64,000 bases of DNA from Verrucomicrobiota bacterium (GTDB lineage: Bacteria; Verrucomicrobiota; Verrucomicrobiia; Limisphaerales; JADLHS01): the NCBI GenBank assembly GCA_037044975.1, contig JBAOIL010000025.1, positions 502 through 64,501 of the forward strand, read 5' to 3'. Both the position numbers and the translations under genes were made by a program. Below are positions 38,988 to 43,456 of this stretch, in pieces. Position 1 is the stretch's first letter; every line of letters begins with the position of its first letter. Under the pieces are notes generated by a model. That model was not told the DNA's origin and searched no databases. It worked only from the letters and a program-made list of their open reading frames with translations.

Positions 38988-39722
38988 TCAAGGGGAAAGT
39001 CCGTTGGTGAGCAAAGGCGCTGCCGTAATCCGGACAAACCCGTTCGCCCGCTGTGTCGCCTCCGCAACCTGGGCCTTGGTCATTTTCCTTTCCAAGCGCT
39101 CGATCATCTCGCTGGCATCCCCAATCCCGTTGTTCGCGGCCAGTCGAAGCCACTTAAAGGCTTCAATCAAGTCGGGCTTCACCCCCATGCCAAGTTCGTA
39201 ACGCTGACCAAGATTGAACTGAGCCAACGCCTCTCCCCGCTCGGCAGCAAGTTGGTGCCATTTCGCCGCCAACGTCTGGTCTTTCTTAACGGCACGGCCT
39301 TCCTCATACAAGCCGGCGAGGCTATACATGGCTCTGACATTGCCATGCCCCGCCGCAGCAAGGTAAAGCCGCAGCGCTTCGGCAGGATTGTTCGTCACGC
39401 CCTGACCAATCGTATAAAGCTCTGCGAGTCCTACCATTGATTCGACATGACCTTTAGTCACAGCCATTTGAAACAACGAGGCCGCCTCAGAATAGTTTGG
39501 CAGCCCGTATTCACCCTTCACGAGGGACTTGGCCAGCCTGTATACAGCCTCCGAGTCACCTGCTTGCGCTCTCGCTCTGAGGGTGGCCTCATCAACAAGC
39601 GGAGCAGCAGACTCGGCGTCAGCCGCTGGATTGCTCACTCTCGTATCGCGTGCATTCCACACCATGACGACGGCGATACCAACAATCACCAAAACCACGA
39701 TGAGCATTAAAGGTTTTTTCAT
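38988..39722 (-). CDS. Sel1-repeat (TPR-like) protein, membrane anchored
   Basis: N-terminal TM helix and at least four Sel1-type repeats (A..W...AA..G...A...LG..Y..G.GV); start at MKKPLML. Confidence 0.85.
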   Translation of the reverse strand: MKKPLMLIVVLVIVGIAVVMVWNARDTRVSNPAADAESAAPLVDEATLRARAQAGDSEAVYRLAKSLVKGEYGLPNYSEAASLFQMAVTKGHVESMVGLAELYTIGQGVTNNPAEALRLYLAAAGHGNVRAMYSLAGLYEEGRAVKKDQTLAAKWHQLAAERGEALAQFNLGQRYELGMGVKPDLIEAFKWLRLAANNGIGDASEMIERLERKMTKAQVAEATQRANGFVRITAAPLLTNGLSP

Positions 39723-40110
39723 ACAGGAGCTAACAAATCCCCAAGGCGACGACCGCGCATAACCCACCCTGGCAACGTTCATTTGAACTTGCCACAAACT
39801 CCAGACTCTTTGCGGGACGACAGGGAAACGATAACAGCCGAACCAACGTGAGTAAACACCCTATTCAAGATAGCAGAAAAGTGTCATGGCGGGCCTGTCC
39901 TCGCCAGGAAGCGAGCACCTCCATAGCCGGTAAATCAGACTGCCTACGCGATAATGATGCCGTGCGCAATGGCTTCCCACACGACAAAGCCAAAACTCCC
40001 AAGTGGTATTGGCGCACGGCTGACCCGGTCGAGGCTTATCAATCGAACAGCTCAGTTCCTCGGTTCACCTCGGCAGGCCGACGCGTTTGTTCCCATCAAA
40101 CCGGCCCCGG

Positions 40111-40460
40111 TCGCCAAGTGAAATGTCAGACAGGTTTGGCTTGCCACAATGTTGATTTGGTGCTTCCGCCAATTCCGCACCCGTCAAGAGATTCTATAGC
40201 GAGGCCGGCGCGAACCGGCTGGACAGAGCAACGGCGAGGATGGATACCACGGCGATGCTCGCGATGTTTTTGCGGACGGCTTTATTCATGTGAGGAGGGA
40301 CGCCCGGAAATGGGCATTCTGGTTGTCGGATAGTGCCGCGTTCAACTGACGCCCCCGGTTTCGCGTTCCGGCGCTTGCGTCGGCCCACAGCCGCCAAGTG
40401 AGACGACCTTACACCCTGCCCGGGGTTTGTATCGTGAAGAGTTGAAGGGGGTAAAACGAC
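40111..40460. repeat. copy 1 of a ~350-bp module preceding a vapBC locus
   Basis: About 90% identical by hand alignment to 41197-41590. Confidence 0.85.
40194..40289 (-). CDS. small hydrophobic peptide ORF inside repeat copy 1 (31 aa, truncated relative to copy 2)
   Basis: MNKAVRKNIASIAVVSILAVALSSRFAPASL*. Its TAG sits where copy 2 has CAG. Confidence 0.4.
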   Translation of the reverse strand: MNKAVRKNIASIAVVSILAVALSSRFAPASL

Positions 40461-40472
40461 CAAAAGGAGCGG

Positions 40473-40730
40473 TTGAATTGTGCGCACAACGGGGTTACTG
40501 TGCGCATGATGAAACTGCGAAAGAATCTTTCCCTCGATGCGCGGGCGGTCGCCGCCGGCCAACGGCTGGCGGATGAACACGAAAACGGCAACCTGTCGGC
40601 AGTGGTTGAAAAACAACTCCTGGCCCTGGCCCGGGAAGGGGAAGACGAACACTTCTCCCGGCACACCGGAACGCCGGTGGCGCGCCCCGGCGAGGCCCGG
40701 TTTGATTACTTGAAAAGGAAACACGCATGA
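40473..40730 (+). CDS. vapB: VapB-type antitoxin (DUF6364-like)
   Basis: KLRKNLSLDARAVAAGQRLADEH...LSAVVEKQLLAL. A TTG at 40473 follows aaggag; the alternative start is ATG 40506. Overlaps vapC by 4 nt. Confidence 0.7.
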   Translation: MNCAHNGVTVRMMKLRKNLSLDARAVAAGQRLADEHENGNLSAVVEKQLLALAREGEDEHFSRHTGTPVARPGEARFDYLKRKHA

Positions 40731-41134
40731 AAGTGCTCATTGATACGAACGTCGTCTTCGATGTTTTCGCCCGGCGGCAGCCGCACTACTCCGCCAGCAA
40801 CCACATTCTCAAGCTGGCGCGGCGCAAGAAGATCGCCGCCGCCGTTGCCGCCCACACGGTCGCCAACCTTTTTTATTTTTACCAGCGGCCCGCCGTGGCG
40901 TTTCTCCGGGAGGACTTGTTGCCGAACGTCGAAGTCGCGGCGGCGGATTCGTTTCTCACGTTGGCGAGTCTGAATTTGGGGATGCCTGATTTGGAGGATG
41001 CATTGCAGGTGGGGGCCGCGCTGGACTGGAAAGCCGCCTTCATCATCACCCGGAATGTCCGCCACTTCAAAAAGTCCAACGTCCCGGCGATGACCCCGGT
41101 GGAGTGGATCAAGCGGTTTGAACCGGCGCTCTAA
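40727..41134 (+). CDS. vapC: PIN-domain toxin VapC
   Basis: MKVLIDTNVVFD start with conserved acidic residues (D6, E-rich mid region, D near ITRN); 135 aa. Confidence 0.85.
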   Translation: MKVLIDTNVVFDVFARRQPHYSASNHILKLARRKKIAAAVAAHTVANLFYFYQRPAVAFLREDLLPNVEVAAADSFLTLASLNLGMPDLEDALQVGAALDWKAAFIITRNVRHFKKSNVPAMTPVEWIKRFEPAL

Positions 41135-41249
41135 AACGTCAGTGCGCCGCGCAGCTCGCCGCCCAGATCGGTGCGGGCGGTAAAATTCAGATTCGATCGC
41201 CAAGTGAAAAGCCAGACAGGTTTGGCCTGCCACAATGTTGATTTGGCCC

Positions 41250-41375
41250 TTACGCCAATTTCGCGCCCGTCAGGAGGTTCTGTAACGAGGCCGGCGCGAA
41301 CCGGCTGAACAGAGCCACGGCGAGGATGGAAACCACGGCGATGATCGCGATGTTTTTGCGGACTGCTTTATTCAT
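41250..41375 (-). CDS. small hydrophobic peptide ORF inside repeat copy 2 (41 aa)
   Basis: MNKAVRKNIAIIAVVSILAVALFSRFAPASLQNLLTGAKLA*. Across the shared codons, 4 of the 7 differences from copy 1 are synonymous. Confidence 0.45.
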   Translation of the reverse strand: MNKAVRKNIAIIAVVSILAVALFSRFAPASLQNLLTGAKLA

Positions 41376-41510
41376 GTGAGGAAGGACGCCCAGAAGCGGG
41401 CATTCGGTTGGCGGACAGTGCCGCGTTCAACTGGCGCCCCCGGTTTCGAGTTCCGGCGCTTGCGTCAGCCCACAGCGGCCAAGTGAGACGACCTTACACC
41501 CTGCCCTCGG

Positions 41511-41573
41511 GGTTGTATCGTGAAGAGTTGCGGTTGTATCGTGAAGAGTTGCGGTTGTATCGTGAAGAGTTGG
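41511..41573 (+). repeat. 3 x 21-bp tandem repeat (ggttgtatcgtgaagagttgc)
   Basis: Units at 41511-41531, 41532-41552 and 41553-41573; present once in copy 1 (~40425-40445). Confidence 0.9.
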
Positions 41574-41641
41574 AGGGGTTAAAATGACCGGAACGCACGC
41601 TTTCAATTTGCATTCAATGCGCCGTGAGTTATGCTTTTTCC

Positions 41642-41884
41642 ATGACGACGTGTTTAACGTTCCGGGATGTGCCTGTGGAATTGCGGGACGAATTGAAGCG
41701 GCGCGCGCAGGCGAACAAGCGGAGTCTCAATGCCGAAGGGGTGACGCTCTTGGGAGAGGTGTTGCAGGCGGGCGCGCGCCTGCCCGAAAAAGAACTGCGC
41801 CGCCGCATTGCCGCCACCAAGACCCCGCACAAGGGTTTGACGCGGGCAGAAATGCACGCCGCGATTCGGGAGGGGCGCAAGTGA
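41642..41884 (+). CDS. vapB: Arc/RHH-type (FitA/VapB-like) antitoxin
   Basis: MTTCLTFRDVPVELRDELKRRAQANKRSLNAEGVTLL; its stop overlaps the GTG start of the PIN gene. Confidence 0.75.
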   Translation: MTTCLTFRDVPVELRDELKRRAQANKRSLNAEGVTLLGEVLQAGARLPEKELRRRIAATKTPHKGLTRAEMHAAIREGRK

Positions 41885-42279
41885 TCGTCGCCGATTCCAC
41901 GTTGGTGGCGGGGTTTGTGTTCCCGGAAGATAGTTTCCACCAGGTGGCCCGGGCGGTGCGGGACAAGGATGGGGACTGGCGGTGTCCGGAGTTGATTTTT
42001 TCCGAAGTGCGCAGTGTGGGGTTGAAGAGTCGCACCCGCAAAATCCCCCTCGACACCATCATTGCCCGGTGCAATCTCGCCGCAAACGCGGTGTCCGTTT
42101 ACCGGATGCACAATCACAGTGTCTTGTCCGTCGCCGAAGCGGGTGGGCTTTGGGTTTACGATGCGGAATATGTGGCGCTGGCCCGGCAACTGGCGGTCAC
42201 GCTGGTGACGTGCGACGCGGAAGTGTTGAAAAAGTTCCCGGCGCTGGCGCTGTCGCCGGAGCAGTTCCTTAAAAAGTAA
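41881..42279 (+). CDS. vapC: PIN-domain toxin VapC
   Basis: VIVADSTLVAGFVF...DAEYVALARQLAVTLVTCD; 132 aa from GTG 41881. Confidence 0.8.
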   Translation: MIVADSTLVAGFVFPEDSFHQVARAVRDKDGDWRCPELIFSEVRSVGLKSRTRKIPLDTIIARCNLAANAVSVYRMHNHSVLSVAEAGGLWVYDAEYVALARQLAVTLVTCDAEVLKKFPALALSPEQFLKK

Positions 42280-42284
42280 GCACG

Positions 42285-42444
42285 AGGCGCCGCGCGCCGC
42301 CCGCGTCAACGCCGCCTCGCTCTGCAAACGGAAGGCCGCATCCGGTTTGGTTCGGCCCAGTTCAATCCCACGGGCGACCAAATTTCCGCGCCAGGACTGG
42401 ATGGTTTGGTTCAGGTCAAACGGTGTTGGTTCAAACGTCACCAA
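42285..42444 (-). pseudogene. truncated remnant of a second HAAS/DUF1700-like membrane-protein gene
   Basis: Directly after the stop at 42445 the same frame reads LVTFEPTPFDLNQTIQSWRGNLV, paralogous to TTTTFDLNLAIQRWREKLV at the start of the upstream gene. The similarity is lost where the vapC 3' end begins. Confidence 0.4.
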
Positions 42445-43032
42445 TCATTGCGCTACGAATTGGTTTTGCATGAAGGCGATCACGGGTAACAGGACCGCGA
42501 TCAGCGTGGGCAGCGTCAAGAGAACCAGGACGGCCATGGTCGTGGCGAAGAAACCCATCCAAGAACTTTTGCCTTTGGATCTTAGGATCCAAACATACCC
42601 ACAGTAAACTGCCGCCAGCAGCGGTGGTACGGCCAGATACGATCCACAATCCACCGCGAACCGGGTGAACGCCGGCAAGACGCCTCCGCGCATGGCCGCG
42701 CTCACCATCGCCGGGAAATGCAGGAGGGCCCACAGCAACCAGCAGCCGAGGCTGAAGAAAACGAGAATCAAACCGTGGCTGATCAAGTTCCACGAATTCC
42801 GGTTCACCTTGGCAAATTCCGGTTCGAGATTCTCCACATTTCCCACCCGGCGCGTTGCGATCAGAAACGATTCTTCCGACGAAAGCCCCTGGCCCTGGAG
42901 GCTCATCGCCGAGTCGCGGACATGCGTTGCCAGCTCCGCCACGTTCTCGGCTTTGAAGTGGGGTGATTGCACCAGCTTCTCCCGCCAGCGCTGGATGGCA
43001 AGATTCAGATCAAACGTGGTTGTGGTTGCCAT
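42445..43032 (-). CDS. PadR-associated membrane protein with an N-terminal HAAS/DUF1700-like helical domain
   Basis: 195 aa from ATG 43032 with four predicted TM helices in the C-terminal half; overlaps the PadR gene end. Confidence 0.65.
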   Translation of the reverse strand: MATTTTFDLNLAIQRWREKLVQSPHFKAENVAELATHVRDSAMSLQGQGLSSEESFLIATRRVGNVENLEPEFAKVNRNSWNLISHGLILVFFSLGCWLLWALLHFPAMVSAAMRGGVLPAFTRFAVDCGSYLAVPPLLAAVYCGYVWILRSKGKSSWMGFFATTMAVLVLLTLPTLIAVLLPVIAFMQNQFVAQ

Positions 43033-43343
43033 AGTTTTGTGAAGGTTTCGTGGACACTGAGCCACTGTTGCTTTTCTTCCTGCAAAGCCTTCCGACCTTC
43101 CTTGCGCAGCCGATAGTATTTTCGTTTCCGGCCCGTCTCGGCTGCGCGCCATTCGGCTTCGATCAAGTCCTCCCTCTCCATCCAATGCAGCACCGGGTAG
43201 AGCATGCCTTCCGTCCACTCGATTTTACCGCCGGACAGTTCCCGCACCCGCTGGATCAGCGCGTAGCCGTAGTTCTCGCCCTCGGTCAGCACCGATAAGA
43301 CCAGCGGCACCGTCGAGGCGGCAACCAGTTCCTTTGCAAGCAT
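43005..43343 (-). CDS. PadR-family transcriptional regulator
   Basis: ENYGYALIQRV...EGMLYPVLHWMEREDLIEAEW...RKYYRL. Confidence 0.88.
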   Translation of the reverse strand: MLAKELVAASTVPLVLSVLTEGENYGYALIQRVRELSGGKIEWTEGMLYPVLHWMEREDLIEAEWRAAETGRKRKYYRLRKEGRKALQEEKQQWLSVHETFTKLWQPQPRLI

Positions 43344-43456
43344 GGCGGCATTATGCCTAGCACCGCCATGCTTGTCAAGGGAGAAGGTTTTGCGCCGGAA
43401 CTCGGGTGGGGATGCGGGCTTGGTCGCCACCTCACGGGTGTGGCCGCCGGGGACAG

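Follow-up and report, generated by a model that had tools for sequence, protein, structure and literature searches.

Stacked toxin-antitoxin operons in a Verrucomicrobiota chromosome as the probable remnant of a small tailless double-jelly-roll virus

Tailless double-jelly-roll prophages of Vibrio carry a single accessory hotspot between core genes, in which toxin-antitoxin (TA) modules are the commonest cargo (PMC11630473, ISME J 2024). Exchange of the cargo there has been attributed to recombination within the identical flanks (PMC11630473), and prophage remnants that retain their TA loci are known from the cryptic prophages of E. coli K-12 (PMC5371832, PMC3105296). Here we describe a 64,000-nucleotide stretch of a Verrucomicrobiota bacterium contig (JBAOIL010000025.1; hereafter the window, to whose first letter positions refer unless another contig is named), in which a repeated module of about 350 bp precedes each of two different TA pairs. 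We find that the segment 40108-42369 is probably the decayed remnant of one or more small tailless, membrane-containing viruses of a PM2-like, double-jelly-roll type that had integrated into the chromosome. Judged from sequence comparison, the module appears to be viral backbone, consisting of the first gene of the structural operon, here called S, and the region upstream of S. The interval from the 3' end of the viral ATPase gene to the S upstream region would then be an accessory-gene slot, which interchangeable TA operons of type II occupy in the opposite orientation. We thus read the repeat as a case of a known kind and not as a new cassette system or RNA gene.

The repeat was first noticed in a first-pass annotation made from the sequence alone, which described two copies of about 350 bp and about 90% identity. 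When each copy is searched against the whole window with blastn, 40108-40444 pairs with 41194-41530 (90.5% identity, 338 columns, E 1.5e-131), within 3 nt of the coordinates first proposed, and exactly two copies and no third are returned. A repeat scan of the window resolves the similarity into stretches of 212 nt (90% identity) and 101 nt (94%), and 1086 bp separate the start of one copy from that of the other. In a MAFFT alignment of the two copies the left edge is sharp, at TCGCCAAGTGAAA, and the right edge is gradual, fading past GGGG(G/T)TAAAA(C/T)GACC at about 40465 and 41593. Copy 2 is longer by 42 nt because a 21-bp unit, GGTTGTATCGTGAAGAGTTGC, is present three times there and once in copy 1.

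Each copy is followed by a PIN toxin gene with a small antitoxin gene upstream, the antitoxin reading frame overlapping the toxin start by 4 nt in both units, a VapBC-like type II arrangement. As the first-pass annotation had it, the two pairs are different: one toxin belongs to PIN_3 and the other to PIN, and BLASTP finds no similarity between them at E<=1. Its family assignments fared unequally. The Arc/ribbon-helix-helix (RHH) assignment of antitoxin 2 holds (Arc PF03869, 25.1 bits against a cutoff of 20.4; FitA-like RHH, 26.3 bits against a cutoff of 27), whereas the 'DUF6364-like' label of antitoxin 1 does not, there being no significant family match in Pfam, NCBIfam, PADLOC or PDB.

Relatives of the module were sought by exact-pattern scans, with three patterns from an invariant block within it and one from its left part. 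The 21-base block pattern gave chance matches only, two of them in Tateyamaria, among genomes representing 185,579 species at one genome each; in the JGI metagenomes it recovered L012, which is the same locus as in the window, and L011. In IMG/VR the two other block patterns gave chance matches only and the left-part pattern had no match. L011 is a 4.15-kb contig whose module copy is 75-77% identical to the window copies. A further relative was found through the capsid fragment of L007, which matched a single protein, P0026; the contig of this protein is L042, which contains L007. L042 has the same backbone as L011, with the upstream region 80% and the ATPase gene 84% identical. Module copy 1 is 75% identical to L011 (1049-1267) and 80% to L042, and copy 2 is 77% and 84% identical to them, respectively.

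Read in the orientation of the window, L011 holds a 310-aa capsid open reading frame (ORF) on the minus strand, S (minus), the upstream region with the block, a TA pair (plus), a 219-aa ATPase (minus) and a proline-rich ORF (minus). In L042, as in L011, the TA pair lies between the ATPase gene and S, and a capsid-like ORF directly adjoins S in L042 and L007 too. The pair in L011 consists of a weak ParD-like antitoxin and a PemK/MazF toxin (27 bits), that in L042 of a weak Phd/YefM-like antitoxin and a PemK-like toxin, 32% identical to the L011 toxin. The flanks of the two contigs align at 80-84%, and the 600-nt interiors cannot be aligned. Counting the two window units, four TA pairs thus lie between the same conserved flanks; their antitoxins are unrelated and their toxins are of three types. 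This bears out the suggestion that the cargo is exchangeable. The accompanying suggestion, that the module is a non-coding cassette, is not supported: about one third of the module codes for S, and in the relatives the module adjoins the capsid gene.

The 310-aa protein of L011 scores 23.4 bits against Pfam P2_N, just below the 25-bit cutoff, and has no match in a PDB sequence search. An AlphaFold model built from 23 homologues (predicted local distance difference test, pLDDT, 86.5) has as its top Foldseek match the PM2 protein P2 (2vvf_A; E 1e-16; template modelling, TM, 0.72/0.82; 14% sequence identity), followed by the capsid proteins of PBCV-1, STIV and PRD1. By this modelled fold the protein is a double-jelly-roll capsid protein. 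The ATPases of L011 and L042 have a Walker A motif, GQSGKTT, as read from the sequence; profile searches link the ATPase to PHROG 2666 ('terminase large subunit', E 1e-17) and, weakly, to FtsK/HerA families. Homologues of the capsid protein form 23 clusters in a collection of 5.8 billion proteins. In IMG/VR, searches for related loci gave one weak, unrelated locus with the L011 ATPase and none with the capsid protein.

In PM2, the ATPase gene closes the early operon and the structural late operon begins next (PMC1950889). The viruses described here resemble PM2 (Corticoviridae) in the capsid fold, in the FtsK/HerA-type ATPase, in small membrane-protein genes within the structural operon and in the succession of ATPase gene and structural operon; unlike PM2, they show only 14% identity to P2, their P2_N score is just under the cutoff, and the relatives carry TA cargo. 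Yutin et al. (2018) show PIN and MazE in the genome-map key of their 'STIV group', and their tree includes bacterial sequences labelled PVC group (PMC5894146). This group may or may not be the same lineage as ours. On the sequence and model comparisons, we take the present lineage to be previously uncharacterised small double-jelly-roll viruses that are PM2-like at the level of the fold.

Contigs of the wider family (L014, L017, L018, L019 and L021) are 10-16 kb long and have many small ORFs, some with a holin, a tyrosine integrase or a DNA methylase. In L019 and L021 the ATPase gene, two small genes, S and the capsid gene follow one another on one strand, without TA genes. In L014 and L017 a MazE/PIN pair is convergent with the ATPase gene, which is itself inverted relative to the capsid gene, and no module is present there. 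The TAA of the toxin gene and the stop codon of the ATPase gene overlap by 4 nt, within (C/T)TAAAAC, in five elements with three toxin types, always at the same backbone position. Because L014 and L017 keep their TA pair at this position without the module, the TA cargo appears to be bound to the ATPase 3' end and not to the module. The same fact goes against the first-pass idea of the module as a recombination site that captures TA genes, as does the repeat scan, which found no inverted repeats inside or flanking the modules; the only one it found, 40937/41777, lies within the TA genes.

A double-jelly-roll capsid gene on one side, a gene for an FtsK/HerA-type ATPase on the other, and conserved flanks around non-homologous cargo in L011 and L042 are the features by which we place the window locus with the accessory-gene hotspots of tailless double-jelly-roll prophages. 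As in the Vibrionaceae hotspot, a small temperate double-jelly-roll virus has one slot between core genes that holds mostly TA genes and varies in cargo, and the conserved flanks are compatible with exchange by homologous recombination. Unlike that hotspot, the slot lies flush with the ATPase stop, lineage and host are different (tblastn with the capsid protein found no match among 50,697 deposited phage records), and what the window retains is no intact prophage but a gutted remnant in which two units are stacked. The cargo is most likely exchanged between related viruses resident in the same cell, which would recombine within the conserved flanks. Defence and TA hotspots of P2- and P4-like phages, and moron insertions, also place diverse self-contained cargo at a transcription-unit boundary between conserved core genes. 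Our slot is like these in its conserved flanking core genes, its diverse self-contained cargo and its position at a transcription-unit boundary, but tailed phages of the P2/P4 type and their satellites have much larger genomes and carry mostly dedicated anti-phage cargo.

The divergent small ORF to which the first-pass annotation drew attention is present in both module copies, on the minus strand, and is S. S2 is intact and encodes a small membrane protein with a charged N-terminus followed by one hydrophobic helix, as read from the sequence. S1 is cut short by a nonsense codon, beyond which nine codons can still be aligned to S2. The exact S2 protein occurs on 18 public contigs, always in the same context, and a homologue search with S returned two near-identical clusters only. 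Variants of S from the metagenomes have 89% (L007/L042) and 71% (L011) amino-acid identity. The ratio of non-synonymous to synonymous divergence (pN/pS) is 0.12-0.35 in all pairs of the four variants, and between S1 and S2 the synonymous changes number 7 and the non-synonymous ones 3, a departure from neutrality (binomial P=0.005). Given these substitution patterns, S is a real protein-coding gene under purifying selection, and S1 and S2 would have diverged while under selection. Eight contexts of the capsid gene were examined, and in seven of them an ORF of 39-47 aa, the positional homologue of S, stands immediately before that gene; in the four contexts in which such ORFs were translated or compared (L011, L017, L018 and L019), all are hydrophobic with a single helix. 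In the eighth context, L014, the called ORF is 79 aa long, and its translation includes a hydrophobic ORF of about 40 aa from an internal ATG.

The preservation of S beside both TA loci, when all other viral genes were lost, raises the question of whether S and the TA pair cooperate: S could be the third component of an addiction or defence module, or a type I toxin controlled by an antisense RNA. S is small, with a charged N-terminus ahead of its hydrophobic stretch, and S2 is intact and identical on all 18 public contigs. Across the family, however, the partner of S is the capsid gene: L019 and L021, which have no TA genes, retain S, and L014 and L017, which have their TA pair elsewhere, keep S at the capsid gene. 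S1 moreover carries a nonsense mutation, and neither S nor the TA proteins have a match in PADLOC. We regard such cooperation as highly improbable.

The history of the locus can be read from two pieces of the ATPase gene. The first piece (41134-41196) matches residues 199-219 of the L011 ATPase at 76% identity (E 3.5e-5, tblastn; 82% in blastn) and residues 185-208 of the L042 ATPase at 67% (E 1e-4, tblastn). The second (42292-42369) matches residues 162-187 of the L011 ATPase at 58% (E 0.005, tblastn), and blastn aligns it at 86-89% over 44-49 nt with L011 and at 80% over 51 nt with L042. In L011 the two pieces correspond to 1923-2002 and 2033-2081, about 30 nt apart, and the distance is the same in L042. 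Unit 2 (41194-42282; 1089 bp, comprising the left part, S2, the upstream region and TA2) therefore splits the 3' end of the ATPase gene, with about 20-30 nt lost, and since the pieces are nearly contiguous in the intact relatives, we read it as an insertion. Searches with seven related virus loci (tblastn and tblastx) detected no capsid gene or other viral gene in the window. Its viral DNA consists only of S with its upstream region and the two ATPase fragments, ends on the right at 42369 and does not amount to a complete prophage; no tRNA gene and no compositional break mark the locus.

We propose that the chromosome first harboured a temperate PM2-like virus whose slot held TA1, and that a segment of a related virus, reaching from about the start codon of the capsid gene to the end of TA2, was then inserted by one illegitimate event into the 3' end of the ATPase gene. 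This insertion would have inactivated the virus, and later deletions would have removed everything except the 2.3 kb that carry the two intact TA operons. The module copies would be hitch-hikers beside the TA loci, and S1 has already acquired its nonsense mutation. Given the general biology of TA systems, survival of the 2.3 kb is probably due to TA addiction. As in the cryptic prophages of E. coli, the prophage is largely deleted and the TA genes are intact; unlike those remnants, which derive from tailed phages, what is left here is only 2.3 kb long, is almost solely the accessory slot, and is duplicated.

The two units could also have arisen in place, by tandem duplication of a 1086-bp segment that comprised the module, TA1 and the terminal 65 nt of the ATPase gene. 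Unequal crossing-over at the short stretch TCGCCAA would have produced the duplication, and the second TA pair would later have given way to TA2. Such a duplication accounts simply for the common left end of both copies and for their spacing of 1086 bp, and TCGCCAA does stand at the left edge of both copies, with a similar string at the junction in the L011 ATPase gene. Yet at least two events are required, and it would take a coincidence for the right breakpoint of the replacement to fall no more than about 30 nt from the point in the ATPase gene at which the duplicated segments join. The 7:3 ratio of changes between S1 and S2 (P=0.005) also suits two functional viruses better than neutral decay in a dead prophage. 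We favour insertion because the near-contiguous ATPase pieces call for one event only and because S1 and S2 have diverged under purifying selection; duplication in place is, in our judgement, unlikely.

Chromosomal superintegrons carry TA modules in their cassettes, where they are thought to stabilise the array. The window locus is like an integron array in that a repeated conserved sequence alternates with unrelated TA cargo. It is unlike one in having no attC-type imperfect inverted repeat, in that the repeated part holds a conserved protein gene, and in having two units only. Relatives of the viral tyrosine integrases of the L017 and L021 loci were not found in the window by tblastx, no dedicated search for an integron integrase having been made.

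A unit of about 1.09 kb, made up of the small ORF, the conserved block and the TA genes, could nevertheless be a mobile cassette in itself, one that targets the viral ATPase gene at its 3' end and relies on the module for integration or recombination. Unit 2 is a near-clean insertion in that very place, both units start at an identical nucleotide string, and the motif GCCAAGTGA occurs four times on the plus strand of the window (40113, 40393, 41199 and 41478), always inside the modules. It marks the outer edge and the interior of each module, 280 nt apart and in direct orientation, and four occurrences were reached in none of 100 shuffles. Similarity between the outer and inner motif regions is not significant, however; the possibility that the left part of the module represents the inner region in diverged form was rejected when 424-554 of 2000 shuffles matched or beat the local alignment. 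No recombinase, inverted repeats or target duplication were seen, S directly adjoins the capsid gene in L011, L042 and the family, which makes S and its upstream region backbone and not cargo, and in L014 and L017 the TA pair sits at the ATPase end without a module. The scans with the block and left-part patterns in the genomes of 185,579 species and in IMG/VR likewise speak against a cassette that travels on its own. A mobile unit with the module as its integration determinant is very unlikely. A self-contained mobile or copy-paste cassette that inserts into the ATPase 3' end, the block serving as recombination site, origin or packaging signal, we consider quite unlikely; if true, it would be a new route for the spread of TA genes among small tailless viruses.

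Upstream of S lies the block itself, 67 nt with 93% identity between the window copies and near-identical in L011 (about 1185-1255) and L042 (about 2265-2345). It is nearly unchanged over four lineages, though the synonymous sites of S differ by 29-53% and the DNA on either side varies much more. Because its position matches the boundary between early and late operons in PM2, we read the block as most likely the control region or promoter of the viral structural (late) operon; promoter, operator, replication origin and packaging signal are all possible roles.

Near-invariance in four lineages, together with a possible imperfect hairpin, could also be taken to indicate a structured non-coding RNA, or a cis-regulatory leader common to both TA operons, and a small hairpin directly before the S start does show one compensatory pair. 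Tests of RNA structure are against both. Rfam 15 gives no match at the gathering threshold in the whole window, and at E<=10 only chance-level hits of 14-19 bits in 39700-42400. The minimum free energy of folding is no better than that of shuffled sequences on either strand (z -1.2 to +1.1), and for four sequences the covariation term of RNAalifold is -0.25 kcal/mol, with a compensatory change in 1 of 25 pairs, a comparison of low power because the block is invariant. The block also lies at least about 100 nt upstream of the TA-specific leaders. Of all the explanations weighed here, an RNA gene or shared RNA leader, which the first-pass annotation had entertained, is the least probable.

Each TA pair has a private leader of 45-60 nt with operator-like repeats outside the module (40469-40518 and 41599-41618). 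In the TA1 leader two occurrences of TGTGCGCA, separated by 20 nt, fall within a 20-nt inverted repeat that extends across the start of antitoxin 1; in the TA2 leader GCWTTCAAT occurs twice, 11 nt apart, before antitoxin 2. Because each pair has its own repeats, the module is not their shared operator, contrary to a further early suggestion. A contribution of the module as an upstream promoter for the TA pairs is plausible, since in L042 the ATG of the antitoxin abuts the last conserved bases of the module, GGGGGTAAAAATG. Hexamers resembling -35 and -10 elements can be seen by eye before each antitoxin, but they fall below the criteria of the promoter scan and are not relied on.

Several observations weigh against the virus-remnant interpretation and its parts. 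No intact element with the exact module (at least 90% identity) was found, the closest backbone relatives being 75-84% identical, and the left 56-85 nt of the module have no homologue in the relatives. In L042 the capsid ORF (2550-2906) is only 118 aa long with a garbled C-terminus, which may reflect a frameshift, an assembly error or a decaying element. The insertion of unit 2 is an event that the model leaves unexplained; no target-site duplication accompanies it, and the only possible trace is the TCGCCAA microhomology at the left junction. A scan of 39700-42500 for sigma-70-like promoters passed none, which bears on the promoter role of the block, and both the activity of the TA pairs and their retention through addiction are presumed from general TA biology. 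Even so, we hold a decayed double-jelly-roll virus to be the probable source of the locus.

If this is correct, the apparent 'cassette system' becomes interpretable, and an accessory slot of this kind exists in double-jelly-roll viruses outside Vibrio as well. Its bounds here would be the stop codon of the packaging ATPase and the control region of the structural operon, and it has been filled repeatedly by different TA pairs. The window would offer a clean case of the residue of prophage decay, reduced to the TA-bearing slot and stacked twice, which fits the notion that TA addiction shapes the erosion of prophages. The novelty is modest: a recently described pattern is extended to a new virus lineage and host, with a slot flush with the ATPase stop and a doubled remnant, and no long-standing question is opened. 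Coordinates of the features are collected in Table 1.

Table 1. Features of the virus remnant and of the corresponding sites in related contigs
Feature	Position	Strand	Description
Module copy 1	40108-40465		Left part, S1, S upstream region, one 21-bp unit; 90.5% identical to copy 2
Module copy 2	41194-41593		Left part, S2, S upstream region, three 21-bp units; blastn, MAFFT
S1	40194-40289	minus	Cut to 31 codons by TAG at codon 32
S2	41250-41375	minus	Intact, 41 codons, MNKAVRKNIAIIAVVSILAVALFSRFAPASLQNLLTGAKLA
Invariant block, copy 1	40334-40400		67 nt, upstream of S1; imperfect hairpin GCGCCGG..CCGGGGGCGY and inner GCCAAGTGA motif
Invariant block, copy 2	41419-41485		67 nt, upstream of S2
21-bp tandem repeat	41509-41572; 40423-40444		Three units in copy 2; single unit in copy 1
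Antitoxin 1 (putative)	40506-40730	plus	74 aa; 4-nt overlap with toxin 1 start
Toxin 1	40727-41134	plus	135 aa; PIN_3 (PF13470, 67.7 bits, above cutoff)
Antitoxin 2	41642-41884	plus	80 aa; Arc/FitA-like ribbon-helix-helix
Toxin 2	41881-42279	plus	132 aa; PIN (PF01850, 25.9 bits, above cutoff)
ATPase fragment A'	41131-41196	minus	Last ~21 codons and stop (NLNFTARTDLGGELRGALTF, then stop)
ATPase fragment A''	42283-42369	minus	About aa 162-194 (AFRLQSEAALT...)
Toxin/ATPase stop overlap	Window unit 1, 41131-41134; L011, 1938-1941; L042 (reverse complement), 1332-1335; L014, 3030-3033; L017, 1342-1345

The arrangement of the window is fixed across the population: dozens of public contigs encode proteins identical to PIN_3 and S2, each time in these surroundings. 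Neither an empty site nor a single-unit strain was found, exact matches of the PIN_3 protein, of S2 and of the Sel1 neighbour leading to the same arrangement or to contigs that break at the repeat. The Sel1 gene and a gene with a prepilin-type N_methyl motif, both neighbours of the locus, may point to a host of the PVC group. Among strains, copy 2 of the module has three 21-bp units in the window, two in L001, L003, L030 and L033, and one in L008, L012 and L032; copy 1 has one unit in all strains compared. In L011 an 11-bp doublet (ATCGTGCAATC) takes the place of the 21-bp repeat. A plus-strand ORF running across the invariant block and the 21-bp (7-codon) repeats was considered and rejected, since an in-frame stop interrupts it in copy 1 and it does not end at the same place in L011 and L042. 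The module repeat fragments short-read assemblies of the species, including the metagenome-assembled genomes (MAGs) GCA_018063265.1 and GCA_020848635.1. Public MAG and Logan contigs of the same organism (L002, L004, L006, L028 and L035-L041) end at or inside the module or the 21-bp repeats.

On the left of the locus, 39723-40200 was considered as debris of the capsid gene and rejected, no similarity being found by blastx or tblastx. On the right, the viral DNA is followed on the minus strand by a 25-codon fragment (42370-42444; TPFDLNQTIQSWRGNLV...) that shares 65% identity (E 1e-5) with the N-terminus of the neighbouring membrane protein. From its sequence, the fragment resembles a truncated paralogue, cut off where the virus remnant ends on the right. 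The gene of this membrane protein (42445-43218) lies downstream of a PadR gene (43005-43430).

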